Shown piece by piece: positions 2,399 to 62,165 of a stretch of DNA of 64,000 nucleotides. Where the stretch lies: the NCBI GenBank assembly GCA_028130375.1, contig GCA_028130375.1_3658.1; one strand, given 5' to 3'. Under the pieces are notes generated by a model that worked only from the letters and a program-made list of their open reading frames with translations, was not told the DNA's origin and did not search any database. The stretch is from a phage. Every line of letters starts with the position of its first letter. Positions within the stretch are counted from its first letter, which is position 1. A program made the position numbers and the translations under genes.

Positions 2399-4470
2399 TG
2401 GCAACAGCTGTTTTTAAACCTTACCGTGATTACTCTACAATGGCTGCACGGTTTCATTACCGAACAGTTCAGGATACTGCCGTTCCTGGTAGGGATTATG
2501 ATCATGTTGAGGGCGATGTAACTATCCCAGTTGGGGCAACCAGTATTGAGATCCCCGTGGAAATTGTTGACAAATTACCCAACAGGTTGCCAAGAAGCTT
2601 CTTTATGGAGTTTTCATCAAAATCTCAAGGGGTGATGATTGGAACACAAAGGGCGAAATGTACAATAGTTTCAGATGAGAATCTTGACAGGATATCTTGG
2701 GATACTATTGAGGAGAGAATGTTTCACCCAAGATATTGGGTTACAACCACTCAGCAGACTGAAAGTACCTGTATTGTTGCAGATAACAACTGTTGTATTA
2801 ACCGTTTAGTGTCAAGAACATATGGAGGTATGGCTGGGTGCATTTGGGAAACAGTTGACAAGTATGACCATTTCGGTATTGGGTTTGATGATCACTATGA
2901 GATGAGAAACACCAAGCTTTGGTTCAGAATGTCAATAACCAACGCCAGCAACTTCTCCACTCCTGAAAAGATGATTATGACTGTAGACCTTGTTGATGGC
3001 ACAATCATCTATGTTCCTTTAGCTCAATATGCTGTCAGCATCTCAGAGGATAAGAATGTTGCAGAAATTCATATTGATTTTGAGGACTGCGTCGGGATGG
3101 ACCAGAACAACAACATGATGGGTGTTGATCCTCGGCAGGTGAGAAGGATTTTAATACCGCTTATGCCTAAAGACTGGGTAAGTAATAGCACAGACCCGAG
3201 AACGGAAAATGTAGAGTGTGAGTTGCGCCTAGATCTGCTTCAGCCAGACACAGGCTGGAAAATGATGCAACTTAACAATATCCAGGTGAGAGAGCACGAT
3301 GTTGGGATCTGCACCGCATATGACGATATGTGGAACGTGTCTCCTTTAAGGGTGTTGAACAATATCAAGCGTCTGGGCTATACCGGAACCATAAACCATT
3401 ATGTTGGTATGAGTCATTATTATGACTACACATGGTCAGGAACCCAATGGTCTATAAACAGAACAGGAGCGCTAAACGCTGCAGCTTATAAATGGCATGA
3501 TGATTTTATGTACAATGCCAAACGACATAACTTCGACGTTATGCAATCTGTAAGTTTTGAGCTTTTCAGCGATGCCTGCCCGTTGGAATGGACCCAAAGA
3601 GACTGGAACGATAACTACGCTAAAACAGGGTATACACCTTGTAGCTACCTCCTGTCTCCAACCATTGAAGAGGGTATGAATTTCCTTACTGCAGTATTTA
3701 AGAATTTTGCATCAGCCGCTATGAGAAACAACCTGCCAGTGATTATGCAGGTTGGTGAACCGTGGTGGTGGTACAATACCGATACTCGTAGACCTTGTAT
3801 TTATGATTACCCTACAAAACAGGCGTTTTATGATGAGACAGGCGAGTATGCATTAGATATTGGGACTATTGACGATCCTAAAACTGGAGGTGTTTACGAT
3901 AAGTATGTAGCATTTTGTCGTGGTAAGCTTGGCGCTCGTATTGCGGCTATTTCAAAGGCAATAAAGGCACACGCTGCATCAGCTCAGATGACAGCTCTGC
4001 TGTTTTTCCCAACCATTATGGAAACCGAGCTTACGCAAAAGCTTAACCTTGCTGACCAATATAAAAAGGAAGCAGGTGCTCTTGATTTCTTCTGCACCGA
4101 GTGCTACGATTGGGTGATGCAGGGAGGTATTGAAAAGGCAAAAGAGTCTGTAAACATACCTATCGTTAAGTTAGGTTGGCAACCGTCTGAAATACAATAC
4201 CTTGCAGGGTTCGTTCCTAGTAAAGAGCTTGCTCCGGTATATGGTTACGACCCAACCAGGAATTACCAAGAATTTTTATGGAGATGTATTTGCGGAAACA
4301 TGGCAACTATAGAGTATAGATATCCTGAGGTAAAACAGTATGTGTGGGCATACCCGCAAGTAATGTCTGACAGCATCACTGTTACCGCTAGAGATTCTAC
4401 CGTGCTTCATATGGGGCAGGTTGCTCTGAAAGGGTATGTAGAAGATGTTGTCCCGCCAGACTTCTCATAA
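2398..4470 (+). CDS. Putative baseplate or tail-fibre structural protein
   Basis: 690-aa ORF, start overlaps upstream stop (ATGG), sits in the structural operon. Confidence 0.4.
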   Translation: MATAVFKPYRDYSTMAARFHYRTVQDTAVPGRDYDHVEGDVTIPVGATSIEIPVEIVDKLPNRLPRSFFMEFSSKSQGVMIGTQRAKCTIVSDENLDRISWDTIEERMFHPRYWVTTTQQTESTCIVADNNCCINRLVSRTYGGMAGCIWETVDKYDHFGIGFDDHYEMRNTKLWFRMSITNASNFSTPEKMIMTVDLVDGTIIYVPLAQYAVSISEDKNVAEIHIDFEDCVGMDQNNNMMGVDPRQVRRILIPLMPKDWVSNSTDPRTENVECELRLDLLQPDTGWKMMQLNNIQVREHDVGICTAYDDMWNVSPLRVLNNIKRLGYTGTINHYVGMSHYYDYTWSGTQWSINRTGALNAAAYKWHDDFMYNAKRHNFDVMQSVSFELFSDACPLEWTQRDWNDNYAKTGYTPCSYLLSPTIEEGMNFLTAVFKNFASAAMRNNLPVIMQVGEPWWWYNTDTRRPCIYDYPTKQAFYDETGEYALDIGTIDDPKTGGVYDKYVAFCRGKLGARIAAISKAIKAHAASAQMTALLFFPTIMETELTQKLNLADQYKKEAGALDFFCTECYDWVMQGGIEKAKESVNIPIVKLGWQPSEIQYLAGFVPSKELAPVYGYDPTRNYQEFLWRCICGNMATIEYRYPEVKQYVWAYPQVMSDSITVTARDSTVLHMGQVALKGYVEDVVPPDFS

Positions 4471-43146: not shown

Positions 43147-43512
43147 ATGGAACAAATGAACGATCAAACGTCGGTTGCAATGAACGAGCAAGAACAACCT
43201 CAAGAATTTTTCTTAGGGTTAAGTAAAGATCAAGTGTCTCTTTTGCTAGTGCTTTCTTCTTTCATGGGAAGACTTCAGGAGCTCACACAACAACCGGAGG
43301 CTGAACAATTATTTCAGGCTCTGCGCGAAGAAGAAAAATATCGTCGTTTGGACTATGCCTTAGGTTGGGTAGCTCAACAACGAGATATGCTGATGGCTCT
43401 CTCTGGGACCACAAGTTTTGCAATGGGCCTGTTGGCTCAAGTTCAGGACAAATTAATTCAGGCAGGGTTTGCACACACGGCAAACACTAACGAAGAACAA
43501 GGAGACAAATAA
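43147..43512 (+). CDS. Hypothetical protein
   Basis: 121-aa ORF directly upstream of SSB. Confidence 0.45.
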   Translation: MEQMNDQTSVAMNEQEQPQEFFLGLSKDQVSLLLVLSSFMGRLQELTQQPEAEQLFQALREEEKYRRLDYALGWVAQQRDMLMALSGTTSFAMGLLAQVQDKLIQAGFAHTANTNEEQGDK

Positions 43513-44738
43513 TGAGCGTTATTCAACAATTCGCTAACCCGATGAATCCGCGTGAAACTGTTTTACTGGCTCACGGCATGATTAAACGTGTCAGCATCAA
43601 GCCTATCAAAGGTGCTGATCCTACAACAGGTATTAAAACCACTGTGTGGCAAGGTAAGAAAATTGAATCCAGCCACACCATCTCTTTACTGATTTCTGAA
43701 CTGGATTCCTCTGATAACCTGCTTCAAGGTGGTGAAGAAGTTTGGATCAGTATGGGTGATAAGCTGCTTAAACCTGGTCATCAAGACTCTGTCTCTGTTA
43801 AAATTGATGACAAGTGGGAAACCGTAACGCCGGGATGGATCGTAAATATCCCTTTGAAGGCAAACGAGCATAACGGTAAGACCTATTACAAAGGCTCACT
43901 AGCTAAGATGGTCAAGCTGGGTGCAGGAGAGGCTCCAGCAGCGACCCAGCAGCAAAAACAGCAACAAGGTGCACAATCACAAGGCCAGAAGCAGAAACCT
44001 CAGCAGAATGCCAATCAGGACGTTTTACGCATCTATGGCGATGTGACTCAGATTGTTGGCAACGTGGTTACTGTTAATGACCACAAGATTGGCGAAGGTG
44101 CCATGGTTGTCACTGATGAGCAGCTTAAAGACCTGGTGGTAGGTGGTCGTGTTGCAGCCATTGTTGACAAAGACACCGGAAACATTATCAGTGGTTTCAA
44201 AGCCTATCCACCTAAGGCAGAGAACGGCACCCAAGGCTCTGGTGGCAAGCGTAAATCCTCTTACGACCCTATTGGTGTGGAGACGGGACATAGCATCAAT
44301 GCGTTGCAAATCATCCTAGATCGCGGGTTTAAGGTGGACGACCCACTAAGCGTGGCTAAAACACTGCACGTAGTCACCGTTGAGCTTAAGAAAGAGTATG
44401 CTCAAGCCACCAACCGAACTGAGGATGAAGTAGGTGCCAGTGTCGGTAATGCGGTGTTGAACGCTTGTCGCCGTATTGACAAGAAAACGAAAGTTGATGA
44501 TTTTGCAGCGGCAATTACTGCAGAAGCAAAAGATGTCTTGACTAATCTGGCTGAGCCGTTGTACGATTGGATCAAGAACGGTGCTGGGTCAACTGACCAT
44601 CAAGAACCTCAGGCTGCCAAACAGGAAGCAGCTCCACAGCAAAACACTGTAGACGCTCCTCCTGTAAATGATGAGGAAGATGACCCAATGGATCAGAATC
44701 CAGCACAGTACGCCTTTGATGATGACATCCCTTTTTAA
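43512..44738 (+). CDS. ssb: Single-stranded DNA-binding protein
   Basis: 408 aa; Gln/Gly-rich linker and acidic C-terminus ending DDDIPF, as in E. coli SSB; located in the replication module. Confidence 0.6.
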   Translation: MSVIQQFANPMNPRETVLLAHGMIKRVSIKPIKGADPTTGIKTTVWQGKKIESSHTISLLISELDSSDNLLQGGEEVWISMGDKLLKPGHQDSVSVKIDDKWETVTPGWIVNIPLKANEHNGKTYYKGSLAKMVKLGAGEAPAATQQQKQQQGAQSQGQKQKPQQNANQDVLRIYGDVTQIVGNVVTVNDHKIGEGAMVVTDEQLKDLVVGGRVAAIVDKDTGNIISGFKAYPPKAENGTQGSGGKRKSSYDPIGVETGHSINALQIILDRGFKVDDPLSVAKTLHVVTVELKKEYAQATNRTEDEVGASVGNAVLNACRRIDKKTKVDDFAAAITAEAKDVLTNLAEPLYDWIKNGAGSTDHQEPQAAKQEAAPQQNTVDAPPVNDEEDDPMDQNPAQYAFDDDIPF

Positions 44739-47763: not shown

Positions 47764-47953
47764 GCTTAAATCTGCATGGAACATCGCTGTGGGGGACGAG
47801 ATCCGTATCCCAGGTGGAAAGACCATTATGAAGATATCTCGTATCGAGTACGAAGGTGATCGTGTATTTCATATCTTTGCAGAGGATGGTCGAGAAATTT
47901 ATATACAGGCAGGCTCTCACATCTATATTCGTAAGAAAGGGGACGACAAATGA
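47750..47953 (+). CDS. Hypothetical small protein
   Basis: 67 aa, overlaps neighbours. Confidence 0.4.
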   Translation: MQMFKLKSAWNIAVGDEIRIPGGKTIMKISRIEYEGDRVFHIFAEDGREIYIQAGSHIYIRKKGDDK

Positions 47954-48279
47954 CAGAGATCATCATTTCAACTGCAGGGTATGTGTTCCTGACAATCATT
48001 GCACTGACCATTCTGGTTGTGGTATATGGAATTGTTATTCTCCCTATTCTTGAGACAATTAGTTTGTGTCGGTGTTGGAGAAAGGCTTACGGTCCACAGC
48101 CGTGGAAGGACTGGCCCCACCTTGTGCACATAGCGTTCTCTTATGCTTATGATCACGCCAGCAGTGCATGCATAACCGGGTATCACGCCCACAACTGGAG
48201 CTGGGAAGGGTTGAGGAAATGGAATGTTACAAAGACCATACCTCTCCGCATGTACAAACCTAAAAACAAAGACAGCTGA
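47950..48279 (+). CDS. Putative membrane protein
   Basis: 109 aa; N-terminal hydrophobic stretch YVFLTIIALTILVVVYGIVILPIL. Confidence 0.45.
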   Translation: MTEIIISTAGYVFLTIIALTILVVVYGIVILPILETISLCRCWRKAYGPQPWKDWPHLVHIAFSYAYDHASSACITGYHAHNWSWEGLRKWNVTKTIPLRMYKPKNKDS

Positions 48280-48589
48280 TACTTGAAAATTCCTGGCATA
48301 TCAAGTGTAAGGAGGATTTCTAAAATGGATTTCCTCCTTTTGATATTTCACCGGGTTAGATATTTTAAAATTCTTAGAAAATCAGAAAATGGATCGAAAA
48401 CTAAAATGGATTTTTCAGAGCAGGCGCGACAAACCGAATCACTCATCCTATCGTTTGCACCATATTCCAGTCCACCATTACAGATTTCCCGCACATGCTT
48501 ACATCCTTCTACTGGAACTTCCTCCACTTACCCTTGACCTTTTATGGTAATAATCTAACCACTATCTTGAGGTTGCGGTACAGCTTTCC

Positions 48590-48770
48590 GGGTACTCGAT
48601 CTGTTTTTCGTTTCAAAGATTGAATTTTCTTAAAATTTTTCTCGATAAATTTCTCAGTACTCGATCTGTTTTTCGTTTTCTGAATCGGATTTTCTGGAAA
48701 TCGTTCCGGAGCTCGACCTGAAATTTTTGGGAACGAAATCGATTTTTCGTTTTCAGAAATGGATTTTTAA
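48590..48770. repeat. AT-rich direct repeats (tactcgatctgtttttcgttt x2 plus degenerate copy)
   Basis: Exact 21-bp repeat at about 48591-48611 and 48655-48675; related cgatttttcgttttc near 48740; aaatggattt motif recurs 4 times in 48320-48760. Confidence 0.6.
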
Positions 48771-48881
48771 AATTTCTATATGGGAATATTTTATGGGATA
48801 CTGTTTTATAGGAAATTGTTACGGAGGGTAATTAGCACGCTAATTAAATTTATTAAATGCGAGGAGTTCTCATTTAGAATT

Positions 48882-48900
48882 TTGAATGATAATCATTCTC
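48882..48900. promoter_or_regulatory. Fur-box-like operator (15/19 match to GATAATGATAATCATTATC)
   Basis: ttgaatgataatcattctc. Confidence 0.45.
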
Positions 48901-49016
48901 GTTTGCAGAATAACGGGCACCCCCGGTGATTGTCTCCCGGCCCCTGTTGCCCCGGCTTGTTATTATAGTATCACACAGGACAAAGAAGGCAAGGATTTTT
49001 TGCATAAATTTTTAAA

Positions 49017-49035
49017 TGATAATGATAACCGTTCT
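49017..49035. promoter_or_regulatory. Fur-box-like operator (16/19 match)
   Basis: gataatgataaccgttctc; followed, like the first copy, by a GC-rich about 35-bp element. Confidence 0.45.
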
Positions 49036-49055
49036 CATTTTATGCAGCGCCCATC

Positions 49056-49090
49056 CCCGGTGGTTATCTCCCCCGTCACCGGTGCCTGCC
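49056..49090. repeat. GC-rich dispersed element (inverted copy at 58031-58066, partial copy at 48918-48945)
   Basis: ccggtggttatctcccccgtcaccggtgcctgccg versus reverse complement of 58031-58066 (about 31/35 identical). Confidence 0.55.
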
Positions 49091-49529
49091 GTCCTTTCGA
49101 TAGGTATATTGTGCCACCTGGCGGGGCCGCTGTCAACACCTTTCAAAAAAAATTATAACCAGGTGCGCCCACTGCCAGGACCTGGCGGGGCCAGTCTGGC
49201 AGGGGAGAGTGAAAGCTTGCAAACCTGGTAGGGCTATGCTATAGGGTAGGCAACAACTGGAGAGGAGGTACAAAAATGAAAGGTAATATGATCCCCTGGA
49301 AAATGTAGCGACTAATGACGCTGAGGCTATCGCCATGGTTGAAAAGGCTATGGCGGGAGCGTTGGAACATAAAGAAGAGTACGAAAAAATGGTGGTTAAC
49401 CTGGCGGGGGCGGCAGGTGGATTCTATCATAAAAATAATTTAAAATAGTCGTTGACAACAAGGTTAATCATGGTATTATTACCCTACAAGGTGAACAACA
49501 CCGCACTAACCAGTAAAGAGGATAAATTT

Positions 49530-49727
49530 ATGAACGCATACGGGATCAAAGTACGTCGCAACACTCGCCAGGTGGTCACCAATCAAGTGATTTGCCGGGT
49601 GGATGTAACCATCAACAACGGGCAAGGCCTTTATAAATTTCGTCGCGGTCATAGCTATACCCTGCAACAGCTTAATCGTTGCGCCCTGACAAAAGGTCAG
49701 ATCAACCACTGGTTTAATAAAAAATAA
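49530..49727 (+). CDS. Hypothetical small protein (first gene of small-gene cluster)
   Basis: ATG 49530 after aaagaggataaa; upstream TTGACA at 49463-49468. Confidence 0.35.
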   Translation: MNAYGIKVRRNTRQVVTNQVICRVDVTINNGQGLYKFRRGHSYTLQQLNRCALTKGQINHWFNKK

Positions 49728-57971: not shown

Positions 57972-58030
57972 TATTTATAAACTACAAAACAGGGCTTGCA
58001 ATGGTCCTGTTTTTTGTTATACTTATTCCA

Positions 58031-58066
58031 CGGCAGGCACCTGGCGACGGGGGAGACAATCACCGG
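58031..58066. repeat. GC-rich dispersed element, inverted copy
   Basis: Reverse complement matches 49056-49090. Confidence 0.55.
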
Positions 58067-58181
58067 GCCTGCCTGTCATATAAGAACTATAAAAACCGTT
58101 GACATCTGCCATGGGGTGGGGTAACATTTATCTTGAAGGGGCAAAAGTGCCCACACAACAACCAGGAGAGAGGAAAACATT

Positions 58182-58454
58182 ATGTCAAGCTGGATTAATC
58201 AAGAAGTCGAATCACGTTTTAATGCTATATGGGATCTCATCGAAAAAGAGGACGGAACATCAAGCCCCTACCTCAACAATTTGGAATTCCATTTTGTGGA
58301 AGCGATGAACGCAGAACATGATCACGAAGGTGGCGCGGATGAGTTCGCTAAAGGTTATGGCTTTAACAATGCCAACGAAATGATCGAGGCGGTAGTACTC
58401 CAGGCTGAGGAAGATTATCAATTAAAAACGCTTGAATTCTGCCGCCGTAAGTAA
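58182..58454 (+). CDS. Hypothetical acidic protein
   Basis: 90 aa; promoter TTGACA-17-TAACAT at about 58086-58114. Confidence 0.5.
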   Translation: MSSWINQEVESRFNAIWDLIEKEDGTSSPYLNNLEFHFVEAMNAEHDHEGGADEFAKGYGFNNANEMIEAVVLQAEEDYQLKTLEFCRRK

Positions 58455-59637: not shown

Positions 59638-60298
59638 TTTTTAACTGAATTATCAAGGGGCTTAGGCCCCTTTCTTTTTGTCTGCTCTTCCCCCCTACCA
59701 TAAACGGCCCTACCTGGCAAGTGGAATAATTGACGAGCCATCAATCCCACACACTGTACAAATATACATGTAAAATAGCTATTGCATAACCTTTCATTGT
59801 GTGGTAGCGGTGCTATTTTTTACCCGTTTTCCTTCCAAAATTGCACGTAATGCAGTTATTGCACAAAATTTAACCTGATGCACATCTTCAATATCTTGTC
59901 AACAACTAAAAATCTTTATAAGTCATACACTTACACAAACCAAAGAGCGTGTTCTACGTGAAAAATCGAGTATAACTATAGCCGCCAGATCTCAGAATTT
60001 ACGTACGCTCGCCATTCTATAGCCTGCTAAGCATTTATTCCAACCATAGAATAACGGAATAGTCAATACCTGCATAAAATAATTATTCGTGTAAACTGCA
60101 TAACATAAATCAGCTTAGGTGTCAACATTTTTCGTAAACAGTCTGAAATTATCACGGTGAGTTATCATAAACAGAGAAATCTTTAGTCGTCTAATGTTTA
60201 CTGTACGTTACTATACTAACTGAAATCATTAGATGACTAATAGAAAGATAAGAAATAATTAACAATACAATTATTTTATCTGTAACAATAAGGCAACT

Positions 60299-60530
60299 AT
60301 GCAAACGAATGGCATGGCGCGACGGAGTCGCGACATAATATAAAAGCAGTAACCATCACCCCCGTGATAGTTTGTCTGCAAACTATTAATCAGATCATAG
60401 TTGCCTTGTATTTAGTTAATCATGACATAACAAGCAAGGCAACTATAGATCTTCTAATAGTTGCCCTGCTTTTATATTATGTCATAGATTATTAACTTGC
60501 TAATAGTTATCATGCAAACGAATGGCATGG
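60299..60530. repeat. Nested inverted/direct repeat block (GGCAACTAT arms; 20-bp direct repeat atgcaaacgaatggcatggc)
   Basis: ggcaactat at about 60292 and 60437 with reverse complement atagttgcc at about 60399 and 60458; exact 20-bp direct repeat at 60299-60318 and 60511-60530. Confidence 0.6.
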
Positions 60531-60533
60531 CTT

Positions 60534-60608
60534 ATCATTTCCATGTAAACTGTCAAGGTGTAAACTATCCAGGCGTAAACAGTCTATGCGGGAACAATCT
60601 ATACGTGA
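60534..60608. repeat. Iteron-like tandem array (5 copies, period about 15 bp, core GTAAAC-W-GTC)
   Basis: gtaaactgtcaagg / gtaaactatccagg / gtaaacagtctatg / gaacaatctatacg / gtgaacagtgaaac; further GTAAACAG copies near 60100, 60136, 60907, 61676. Confidence 0.6.
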
Positions 60609-61254
60609 ACAGTGAAACATGAAATAATAACAGTCGTTATTGTTCCATATTGTGTCATAGTATGTCACCATTATGTCTAAAGTGTCTAAGGTGTCAGACA
60701 AGTTTTTCTCCTCTTTGTCAAGTGCTGCATGAAAAATTTACAATCTTGTATGGTAGCATTTTTGCGGCCATGTTTACATTCAGCGATGTATGTATAAGCC
60801 TTGTTGTGTGGGCGTTTAGACGTCTAGACGGTTGGAAGTCCACAGGTCAATATCTAATCTATCGGCTGCTAACTATATCCCACACAAATAGTAATAAATA
60901 TAATTGTTATATGCGTAAACAGTAACTCATGTTATCAATCCCTGTATGTATCGCCAGTGGTGCGCATAATGGGTATTATGTTAAATTGCCCGTAATGATA
61001 ACAGTTCTCACAATGATAGGTATTCTCATTCATCCACACAAAATAGGTTGCAAATGTTGTGCCACTGTGTGAACGGCCTGGCCTATTAATTTCTCTCACT
61101 GCCTCGATATTTGAGAATTGTTATAAGAATGAGAAGTATTCCCATTCCGTCCGCCTGGCAGCGCTCCTGTAGGTCCTGCAAGGACTCTAGCTGAAAGCTA
61201 GACCCTTCGGGCCTCCCTGTAGGTCAGGTCAAAATCGTGGCAGAACTGAGCCTG

Positions 61255-61470
61255 TTCAGATATTTCTGGCTGACTCTTCAGGTCTGTGTGGGAAAAGCCA
61301 ACCTCTCCGGCGGGGCAGGGGGAGGTCAATTAAAAAATTTACGTGGTGTATGAAGCGCTCTTCAGGTAAGGCAGGTATTATGGGATGAAACCCTCTTCAG
61401 GCAATGATATTTGTGGGTGTGATATTTGCTGGAAAGCCAGATATGACGGGACTCCCGGCGGGGCAGGGGT
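61255..61470. repeat. GC-rich direct repeats (CTCTTCAGG several copies; cYccggcggggcagggg x2)
   Basis: ctcttcagg at about 61275, 61349, 61393 (again near 61805); ccggcggggcagggg at 61307-61321 and 61455-61469. Confidence 0.55.
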
Positions 61471-62165
61471 AGTACAGACAGGGAAAATATGAGAATGTAG
61501 TTGGGGAAATTGATCAGACAGGTAGAGTATGGAATATGTTACAAGTATGTTAAATATGGAGGTTGAATATCTGTAGGATTTGTGTGTAAAATCAAAGACT
61601 TAAGGGGTGTTGTGGTATTTTCTATAAATAATTCAAGTTTAATAGGCAATATTTGTCTCTATCCGCTTTGTGTGGTAAACAGATTCAGATTAGATTGGTT
61701 TACAAGTGTATACATAATATACAAATTAAAGATACAAGAAACCCCCCTCCCCCCTTCGGCTACCATTCACCTTTTCCTCTGACTGGTACTTAAACACTTA
61801 TTCAGACTCTTCAGGTTATCACCCATATATCATATGGCAGTGACTGGTGTCCTCCGGCCCCTCTTTCGTCACCCGTCCGCTTCGCCATGCTAATGCCATA
61901 GCTAATGGTTCGGTTGTTCACCCTGTTCACTCAGGTGTATCTCTATACCCCTTCAAACCGAAGAGAACAGAAAACCCGAATTACTCGGTAAAAGAAAAGA
62001 GAAGAACTTAATTTTATCAGGATAGGCAAGAATGTCAAGGCATGACTGCTCACTAAACAAGCAAACAGTCATGTGTGGGAGGTAAGTGATTGTGGTGGTA
62101 GGAAATTTAGTTGAAAGATGTGTTATAGGTGCTTCCAGCACTTTAGCCGGGCAGCTAATTGTGTG

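Follow-up and report, generated by a model that had tools for sequence, protein, structure and literature searches.

A constrained non-coding module with three direct repeat units in rV5-like phages, most likely a protein-bound control site

RESULTS

Gene content and features of the locus

The window analysed here, a stretch of 64,000 nucleotides (GenBank assembly GCA_028130375.1), belongs to a Vequintavirus, an rV5-like E. coli myovirus, and its + strand is equivalent to the rV5 minus strand. The locus spans ~1.25 kb (48280-49530) between a gene coding for 109 aa (47950-48279) and a gene coding for 65 aa (49530-49727), both of which are members of a long rightward series of small early genes downstream of those for the primase-helicase and the DNA polymerase. 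The ten proteins flanking the locus gave no Pfam match and their PHROGs are all of unknown function, while a tRNA scan found no tRNA.

Window positions 48200-49300 are matched by 122 phage records at 80-99% identity, and annotations of the locus clash between records, with four or five hypothetical ORFs in some and none in others. Pattern scans of IMG/VR and metagenomes added only five Vequintavirus contigs, and a related-locus search with the downstream protein gave two. In plasmid and E. coli genome searches, the sole match was a Vequintavirus genome recorded under plasmids.

The phage replisome is of the T7 type, with a T7-like primase-helicase and a family-A polymerase. In the 2013 rV5 paper, an origin was sought by skew analysis and was not found. 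The 'non-coding' box of that paper, at rV5 104013-106618 (about 59.3-61.9 kb in the window), is distinct from the repeat locus. The openly accessible literature on rV5-like phages covered by our search contains no account of these repeats, of iterons, of an origin, of transcriptomes or of R-loops. The features that we recognise at the locus are the following:

48300..48350, + strand: intrinsic terminator hairpin of the upstream gene (47950-48279), followed by UUUUGAUAUUU, with the first AAATGGATTT (48323) in the loop
48357..48417, no strand: left conserved block, with AAATGGAT boxes at 48387 and 48404
48418..48589, no strand: spacer, hypervariable in sequence and fixed in length, no codon periodicity (0.244/0.287/0.268)
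48590..48631, + strand: repeat unit 1, 42-bp core GGGTACTCGATCTGTTTTTCGTTTCAAAGATTGAATTTTCT; exact repeat, profile match and gap-free cross-genus alignment
48655..48696, + strand: repeat unit 2, CAGTACTCGATCTGTTTTTCGTTTTCTGAATCGGATTTTCT; exact repeat and profile match
48713-48720: extra box-A-like GCTCGACC, before unit 3
48729..48769, + strand: repeat unit 3, degenerate, ...AAATCGATTTTTCGTTTTCAGAAATGGATTTTT; profile match and third copy in the repeat family
48758..48857, no strand: AT-rich stretch, candidate DNA-unwinding element, with a 15-bp tandem repeat at 48789-48820
48882..48900, no strand: Fur-like palindromic box 1, TTGAATGATAATCATTCTC; 15/19 to the Fur consensus of E. coli, one of the top scores in the window
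48913..48958, no strand: GC-rich element 1, GGGCACCCCCGGTGATTGTCTCCCGG..., conserved across genera
48965..48992, - strand: putative leftward promoter P_L1, TTGCCT, 16-nt spacer, TACTAT; 8/12, under the scan threshold
49018..49036, no strand: Fur-like box 2, GATAATGATAACCGTTCTC; 16/19 to the Fur consensus, the top score in the window
49108..49136, - strand: putative leftward promoter P_L2, TTGACA, 17-nt spacer, CACAAT, with an upstream TG; 10/12 in the scan

The locus does not code for protein

A first-pass annotation of this DNA, made from the sequence, had seen no credible gene across the repeats and had called the ORF at 48283-48537 doubtful. Both statements hold in an alignment of 20 Vequintavirus genomes, which underlies all codon, ORF and diversity figures given here. 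The doubtful ORF is intact in 2 of the 20, and no ORF within 48283-49158 shows an excess of variation at third codon positions in any frame. Such an excess is present in every neighbouring real gene, where third-position variation is 3- to 10-fold higher (for example, 0.025/0.013/0.181 for the three codon positions), whereas the annotated 'genes' of the locus are flat, at 0.105/0.107/0.111, 0.071/0.076/0.088 and 0.037/0.040/0.051. Most candidate ORFs of the locus are intact in 2-13 of the 20 genomes. The one at 48727-48831 is intact in 13 and carries internal stops in the other 7; that at 48886-49158, free of internal stops in 18, differs among genomes by lengths that are not divisible by three. 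Because codon variation is flat and ORFs are interrupted or frame-shifted in many of the 20 genomes, 48283-49158 is non-coding.

It could still be argued that the annotated small ORFs (such as bas54_0100, bas54_0101 and bas54_0102 of phage Bas54, or 48620-48721, 48727-48831 and 48886-49158 of the window) are genes in which the repeats are incidental. Several records do annotate ORFs here, the ORF at 48620-48721 is intact in 17 of the 20 genomes, that at 48886-49158 is free of internal stops in 18, and bas54_0101 appears in a published list of essential genes (see below). Nevertheless, we consider this reading very improbable. Besides the absent codon signal and the broken frames, annotations differ from record to record, with several blank at this place, and the same DNA motifs are retained in genera that have different reading frames. 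A comparison with homologs, proposed in the first-pass annotation as the way to expose a conserved gene, brought none to light.

Three direct repeat units with a common three-box build

An exact 21-bp direct repeat had been reported. It is in fact 22 nt long, GTACTCGATCTGTTTTTCGTTT, and lies at 48592-48613 and 48657-48678; no comparable repeat turned up in 100 dinucleotide-preserving shuffles, even with three mismatches allowed. A repeat search extended it to a 57-nt family with three copies, at 48585, 48650 and 48724 (spacing 65 and 74). To score the units independently, a profile HMM was built from the repeat units of other genera only, with no Vequintavirus sequence. It matched the + strand at 48590-48630 (E 3.1e-5), 48657-48696 (E 1.4e-5) and 48738-48769 (E 5.5e-3). 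The degenerate third copy suspected near 48740 (cgatttttcgttttc) is therefore real, being found both by the profile and in the three-copy family. There was no further match at E < 1 in the 64-kb window, and the profile found zero sites in the 104 kb of phage MaxBurger outside the locus. A second genomic copy of the repeat block, suggested by matches in '2 places' in many records, is likewise absent from the 104 kb of MaxBurger. Tandem Repeats Finder, one of the checks that had been recommended, misses the array, since its units are dispersed and not head-to-tail, and reports only the 15-bp repeat at 48789-48820.

Each 42-bp unit consists of CTCGATC (box A), a central TTTTC and box B (ATCGTATT or TGGATTT) at constant internal spacing. 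All three lie in the same orientation, on the + strand, as in iteron arrays with their three or more same-orientation direct repeats. GATC is not enriched in the units of the window. On both strands, shuffled sequences fold as well as units 1 and 2 do. Unit 3 can form a + strand hairpin of 16 pairs, with G-U pairs (-18.4 kcal/mol, z -3.36), which is specific to Vequintavirus. By eye, varied inverted repeats had raised the idea that the units are hairpins; a column-pair test gave no consistent helix or covariation, and with the folds of units 1 and 2 non-significant the idea was dropped. Since the boxes are kept at fixed spacing without a common structure, recognition by a protein of double-stranded DNA is the expected alternative. 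The units thus point to protein-DNA recognition rather than RNA, with binding itself predicted from the sequence pattern.

The left block, the terminator and the spacer

Four copies of AAATGGATTT had been placed within 48541-48870. This count was too high: only three exact copies exist in the 64 kb, at 48323, 48404 and 48757 (spanning 435 bp), and the one at 48757 alone lies inside that interval. The three copies still exceed chance, with 0.34 expected and three reached in 2 of 300 simulations. The copy at 48323 sits in the loop of the terminator hairpin, which at 48300-48344 has a folding energy of -17.6 kcal/mol (z -3.65) that none of 200 shuffles equalled. The copy at 48404 and a related sequence at 48387, AAATGGATCG, which matches AAATGGATTT at 8/10 positions, form a separate conserved upstream block. 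GAAATGGTTTT(T) boxes occupy the equivalent place in phages PVP-SE1, KP12 and Hena1.

Unit 1 follows the left box at 189-192 bp in all 17 scorable Vequintavirus genomes. In PVP-SE1, KP12 and Hena1, the GAAATGG boxes lie 191-195 bp to the left of unit 1.

Sequence constraint and fixed geometry in Vequintavirus

Nucleotide diversity along the locus in the 20-genome alignment was as follows:

Left block, 48358-48417: 0.013-0.053
Spacer, 48418-48597: 0.24-0.32
Unit 1 core: 0.156, the most variable of the three units
Units 2 and 3: 0.02-0.10 (unit 2, 0.019; unit 3, 0.03)
48868-49137: 0.003-0.08
Neighbouring genes: 0.05-0.12

Purifying selection on units 2 and 3 and on the left block, where diversity is 0.02-0.05, is stronger than on the flanking proteins. 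Spacing is equally constrained: despite the fast-evolving spacer, all distances within the module are constant in every scorable genome.

Unit 1 to unit 2: 64-65 bp, all genomes
Unit 2 to unit 3: 81-82 bp
Unit 3 to box 1: 143-144 bp
Box 1 to box 2: 136 bp

The repeat stretch is a constrained non-coding element.

Homologous modules in distant genera

In a sensitive DNA search, the Fur-like box and the GC-rich element that follows it (~48849-48953) were matched at 80-90% identity in distant genera, namely in Phapecoctavirus, a Klebsiella group, Seunavirus, Certrevirus, Henunavirus and an Aeromonas Plateaulakevirus. Upstream of the box, three direct units are present in each of PVP-SE1, KP12, PBES02, POP17, F2M1E and Hena1, which represent Seunavirus, a Klebsiella phage, Certrevirus (three phages) and Henunavirus; Aeromonas phage 2L372X has two. 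Altogether, 21 units align without gaps over 42 bp, and unit 1 aligns gap-free with 19 units from other genera. The consensus of the 21 is gGGttCTCGATCGa.tTTTCaattTc.aaAtcGtATTtTct, which comprises box A, the central TTTTC and box B, and in several genera a GAAAAAATTTTT tract follows the unit. Phapecoctavirus has the same architecture (AT-rich direct repeats, three boxes and the GC element) with different repeat sequences.

The order of the module is shared across genera: AAATGG boxes, spacer, three 42-bp units, an AT-rich weakly paired stretch, Fur-like palindromes and two predicted minus-strand promoters. In other genera, a small, non-homologous leftward gene lies upstream of the promoters; in Vequintavirus that place is taken by a second copy of the box and GC element.

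The locus tolerates few transposon insertions in Bas54

HIDEN-SEQ, a mariner transposon sequencing method for phages, has been applied to Bas54 (bioRxiv 10.1101/2025.11.20.689424). This phage, MaxBurger, is ~90% identical to the window at the locus, which it carries at 81.2-82.1 kb. The published calls for the three annotated ORFs, which delimit the insertion-intolerant zone at 'gene' resolution, translate into window positions as follows (bioRxiv 10.1101/2025.11.20.689424):

bas54_0100, window 48575-48721 (units 1 and 2): 1 of 3 TA sites hit, mean 5 reads vs ~200 in neighbours; call NA
bas54_0101, all 11 TA sites at window 48768-48829: 0 of 11 hit; 'Essential'
bas54_0102, window 48886-49158 (boxes and GC elements): 5 of 15 hit; 'strong fitness defect'

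To either side of the locus, some dozen genes are dispensable in Bas54. The authors of the method report little polarity and describe the transposon of their T4 library as lacking a terminator. They also report 15 essential genes without functional annotation in Bas54, and their comment on intergenic DNA covers only another region, of ~2 kb (bioRxiv 10.1101/2025.11.20.689424). At least one of these 15, bas54_0101 (along with 0100 and 0102 beside it), is very probably an essential DNA element and not a gene.

That other non-coding region, ~2.4 kb at ~59640-62000 in the window, is also insertion-free in Bas54 (bioRxiv 10.1101/2025.11.20.689424). It contains short iterons of its own, GTAAACNGT, in at least seven copies. 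To describe the repeat block as a 'second' origin-like element, as was done initially, is thus fair.

Weakly paired and phased DNA next to the array

The repeat block had been called AT-rich, and 48599-48898 is indeed the second least stable 300-bp duplex in the window. At a finer scale, only one 100-bp duplex in the 64 kb is less stable than 48758-48857, and it lies in the other non-coding region. The array accordingly adjoins easily unwound AT-rich DNA, as is characteristic of iteron origins. T-tracts at the locus show a phasing of 10.75 bp (vs shuffles, p 0.013 in 48580-48780 and p 0.003 in 48300-48880), and for this reason the DNA is predicted to be bent. No DnaA boxes were found above background, and no IHF sites were found at the locus. 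GATCTGTTTTTCG bears a possible resemblance to the oriC 13-mer, GATCTnTTnTTTT.

Conserved putative promoters directed into the array

Box 2 lies in the second copy of the box and GC-rich element (49008-49100), a direct repeat of box 1 at 136 bp. The conservation of P_L1 and P_L2 was scored in nine lineages by the criteria of the promoter scan. P_L1, at +107 from the box in the window, has equivalents in six other lineages, which lie at +107 to +110 and score 9-10/12; minus-strand equivalents of P_L2 are present in eight lineages, +251 to +275 from the box. Given these conserved positions, the two predicted promoters would aim at the boxes, the AT-rich stretch and the array. Promoters directed into AT-rich DNA are the layout of a transcription-activated origin, here recognised by sequence match, and transcription from P_L1 and P_L2 would run leftward through the module.

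No rightward sigma-70-like promoter was found by the promoter scan in 48280-49450, the first being at 49452. By eye, a possible rightward promoter can be drawn around box 1, with TTGAAT (48882-48887), an 18-nt spacer and CAGAAT (48906-48911).

The suggestion that the block marks a transcriptional boundary between modules agrees with part of this picture: a strong terminator follows the upstream rightward gene, no rightward promoter is predicted before 49452, and the conserved promoters in between point leftward.

The same promoters raise the possibility that the essential product of the locus is one or more leftward non-coding transcripts from P_L2 and P_L1, with the units serving as operators, roadblocks or 3' region. 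The array would then be a regulatory nucleoprotein region that governs an essential small RNA or an early-to-middle switch and has no part in replication. Both minus-strand sigma-70-like promoters are conserved in position and have no downstream ORF in Vequintavirus. The rightward promoter seen by eye would face them, with the Fur-like palindrome overlapping it, so that a sense/antisense pair is conceivable. In addition, the + strand is T-rich at the locus (AT skew -0.26), and the minus strand therefore has the A-rich composition of sense strands in the phage; by eye, the closing helix of GC element 1 tolerates G-U on the minus strand only; and the part with the promoters and GC elements is insertion-sensitive as well. 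Other results weigh against such an RNA. Rfam gave zero family matches for the window region and for eight loci from other genera, the units do not covary, and the GC elements are no more stable when folded than their shuffles (z -0.45, -0.96 and +2.09), as is true of units 1 and 2. The GC-rich elements were also considered as structured RNA in their own right and rejected, since RNAalifold returned no consensus structure (-3.7 and -2.0 kcal/mol for the two strands). No terminator for leftward transcripts was seen. Moreover, the 11 TA sites without insertions lie in AT-rich DNA far downstream of the promoters, whereas the promoter region tolerated insertions at 5 of 15. We regard a leftward RNA as an unlikely explanation, though one to be kept in mind.

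DISCUSSION

We know of no origin, packaging site or other cis-acting element that has been defined in rV5-like phages, which are widely isolated and used in therapy and biocontrol. The repeat block described here is most likely a protein-bound control site within an essential, cis-acting non-coding DNA module. The initial description of it as an origin-like or regulatory element suits either term: strong conservation, fixed spacings, distant homologs and a near absence of insertions in Bas54 are compatible with both.

Our best, if tentative, explanation is that the cis-acting iteron array and its unwinding element form a transcription-activated lytic origin, or one half of a two-part origin; we give this somewhat less than an even chance. 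The three 42-bp units would be bound by a phage or host protein. The phased T-tracts and the length-fixed spacer of ~190 bp to the AAATGG boxes could allow the DNA to bend or wrap into a defined complex, which would adjoin the weakest duplex of the neighbourhood (48758-48857). P_L2 and P_L1, which are of host type, might then fire leftward into the AT-rich stretch and the array, and in doing so open or prime the DNA for the T7-like primase-helicase and the family-A polymerase. Placed between the AT-rich stretch and the promoters, the Fur-like palindromes could act as a gate on this opening. A replication role of this kind is suggested by the combination of a unique, non-coding, insertion-intolerant module, three units of the protein-binding type on DNA predicted to be bent, a weak duplex alongside with two putative promoters directed into it, and a T7-type replisome for which no origin has been identified.

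Iteron origins such as lambda ori, P1 oriR and those of iteron plasmids share several properties with the locus: repeats in the same orientation, bent DNA (predicted for the locus), a meltable AT-rich neighbour, a unique position and an apparent requirement in cis. In known iteron origins, sites of 17-22 bp are closely packed, and the cognate initiator is usually encoded beside or over the iterons. Here, by contrast, the units are three-box sequences of 42 bp that lie 65-80 bp apart, no recognisable initiator gene overlaps or flanks them, and DnaA and IHF sites are absent. No initiator-like gene was recognised nearby. An essential 408-aa protein encoded close to the locus was considered for this part; it has an SSB-type C-terminal tip and no initiator fold by sequence, and looks SSB-related. 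The variability of unit 1 within Vequintavirus also counts against an origin. As a candidate origin, the locus would be an iteron and unwinding-element module of unfamiliar build.

The promoter arrangement has its own parallels. The T7 primary origin consists of the tandem promoters phi1.1A/1.1B followed by an AT-rich region, and it is dispensable. By analogy with this origin, with T4 oriF/oriG and with the ColE1 primer promoter, P_L2 and P_L1 may be read as tandem promoters directed into AT-rich DNA, and the rV5-like phages resemble T7 further in their primase-helicase and family-A polymerase. The differences are that the promoters here are of the host sigma-70 type, whereas those of T7 serve the phage polymerase, that T7 has no iteron array, and that the repeat region is insertion-intolerant. 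The last point argues against the origin reading, as T7 offers the closest analogue of the promoter layout and can do without its primary origin.

A further objection to an origin at the repeat locus is the region at ~59640-62000, whose short iterons are more classical and which is at least an equal origin candidate. The two regions could also be partners. Two separated, essential non-coding regions with a shared repeat motif recall, by analogy, ori and crr of the satellite phage P4. The repeat locus and the ~59640-62000 region share a 16-nt motif, ATGATAAC(C/A)GTTCTCA, a single short match for which ~0.005 are expected by a rough estimate. Unlike in P4, the main repeats differ between the two regions.

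Packaging sites present another comparison. In SPP1, P1 and lambda they are made of repeated terminase-binding boxes with bends, and pac lies in or beside the small terminase gene. The three repeated boxes, the predicted bends, the fixed geometry and the apparent need in cis are reminiscent of lambda cosB R1-R3, SPP1 pacL/pacR and P1 pac. The units and AAATGG boxes might accordingly bind the small terminase on bent DNA, with the cut made nearby, as in SPP1 and P1. The locus is single in the genome and essential in a cis-like fashion, its phased DNA is presumably bent, and rV5-like phages package by the headful. Unlike the known sites, however, it is remote from the terminase genes, whose operon lies ~80 kb away, where the Bas54 map begins. 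PhageTerm analyses give circular permutation and no pac position, and the conserved promoters aimed at the array have no part in such a scheme. We therefore hold a pac site to be improbable. The start of the phiWec189 record, which falls inside box 2, was examined as a possible terminus and discarded, as the ends of this record overlap by 149 bp and the apparent terminus is an assembly artefact.

Functions beyond those named here take up about a quarter of our expectation. Independently of which function applies, an essential element is conserved from Escherichia to Aeromonas phages, and genome annotations took its non-coding array for small genes. The locus offers a defined target for experiments, ~850 bp with delimited boxes, and a caution to phage engineers, who should not insert a payload at the repeat locus.

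The Fur-like boxes lie outside 48541-48870. With matches of 15/19 and 16/19 to the Fur box GATAATGATAATCATTATC, the palindromes look like those of Fur-repressed enterobacterial promoters; their cross-genus consensus in phages, AATGAGAAT-C-ATTCTCATT, differs from the Fur box. On this sequence resemblance, they could be bound by Fur or equally by a phage protein. Should they be genuine Fur sites, a strictly lytic phage would be reading a host metabolic regulator at an essential site, which is rarely seen. A more specific proposal is a lytic origin of a new build, common to the rV5-like group, in which three tripartite iterons of 42 bp, set at a constant distance from AAATGG boxes, are opened by two host-type promoters and gated by Fur, the iron sensor of the host, through the conserved palindromes. 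We rate it as a long shot; were such an iron-gated origin true, phage DNA replication would be tied to the iron state of the host. The Fur-like palindromes are kept in phages of Escherichia, Salmonella, Klebsiella, Cronobacter, Pectobacterium, Erwinia and Aeromonas.

The Fur-like palindromes and related elements elsewhere in the window

Two palindromes lie beside the repeats:
48882-48900, Fur-like palindromic box 1, with 15 of 19 positions agreeing with the Fur consensus of E. coli
49018-49036, Fur-like palindromic box 2, agreeing at 16 of 19 positions

These boxes have the top Fur-consensus scores within the 64-kb window. Their own consensus, AATGAGAAT-C-ATTCTCATT, occurs in one to three copies and is kept in phages that infect seven genera of host. 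Constancy of this kind across hosts would fit a conserved host factor.

Box 2 shares ATGATAACAGTTCTCA (at 60996-61011) with a second non-coding region:
59640-62000, about 2.4 kb of non-coding DNA where the rightward and the leftward gene arrays meet

This region carries at least seven copies of GTAAACNGT-type iterons (e.g. at 60540-60620) and two of GCAAACGAATGGCATGGC, and the weakest duplex of the 64-kb window lies inside it. It is the counterpart of the rV5 'non-coding' box and of the Bas54 (phage MaxBurger) intergenic region without transposon insertions. The GC-rich element of the module has a further copy:
58030-58067, minus strand, third copy of the GC-rich element, inverted, reading GGCAGGCACCTGGCGACGGGGGAGACAATCACCGGGCCTGCC on the plus strand

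This inverted copy is flanked by a terminator and a TTGACA promoter and stands upstream of the gene at 58182-58454.

Sequence flanking the leftward promoters

The 13-mer ACCTGGCGGGGCC is found four times in 49116-49411 (at 49116, 49180, 49223 and 49399). One copy falls within the spacer of the predicted leftward promoter P_L2 and another within a candidate rightward promoter near 49224; in PVP-SE1, the similar CCTGGCGGGG is also within a promoter spacer. The same stretch overlaps a small gene:
49276-49448, counterpart of bas54_0103 in the MaxBurger annotation, frame-shifted in the window

The frameshift reflects a C-run at about 49293 that has four residues in the window versus five in relatives. 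The counterpart is intact in only seven of 20 genomes, and codon periodicity is still present in its 3' part (49337-49448).

In other genera, a small leftward gene, encoding 60-88 aa, is directly upstream of both leftward promoters (positions within each locus):
L026 (PVP-SE1), 1594-1776
L027 (KP12), 1607-1816
L025 (anhysbys), 2814-3080
L029 (Aeromonas 2L372X), 1568-1762

The four products are mutually unrelated, and the position looks like a variable cargo slot.

A protein with an SSB-like C-terminus

43512-44738, 408-aa protein of the uncharacterised family phrog_4477, corresponding to bas54_0087

The bas54_0087 gene is essential by HIDEN-SEQ (bioRxiv 10.1101/2025.11.20.689424). The protein family ends in DFDDDIPF, the same tip as in E. 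coli SSB, and the sole match of the 408-aa protein among PDB sequences was the SSB tail (1eqq, E 0.005). From these sequence matches, the protein is probably either the SSB of the phage or a mimic able to recruit host proteins that bind SSB.

Database records matching the locus

In many Vequintavirus records the DNA similarity search showed the query matching at two 'places'; the second was sought in 104 kb of MaxBurger and was not found there. A complete Vequintavirus genome, with 93.6% identity over the query, is filed in PLSDB as CP057073.1 (match H131), a 137.6-kb 'plasmid' from an E. coli isolate of cattle faeces. It may represent a carrier-state phage or a contaminant deposited as a plasmid. 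At least 16 GenBank MG0656xx 'Campylobacter phage' records (labeled C. jejuni; H14-H17, H24-H27 and others), which are without annotation, are 92-96% identical to the E. coli Vequintavirus locus studied here, and their Campylobacter host label is probably wrong.
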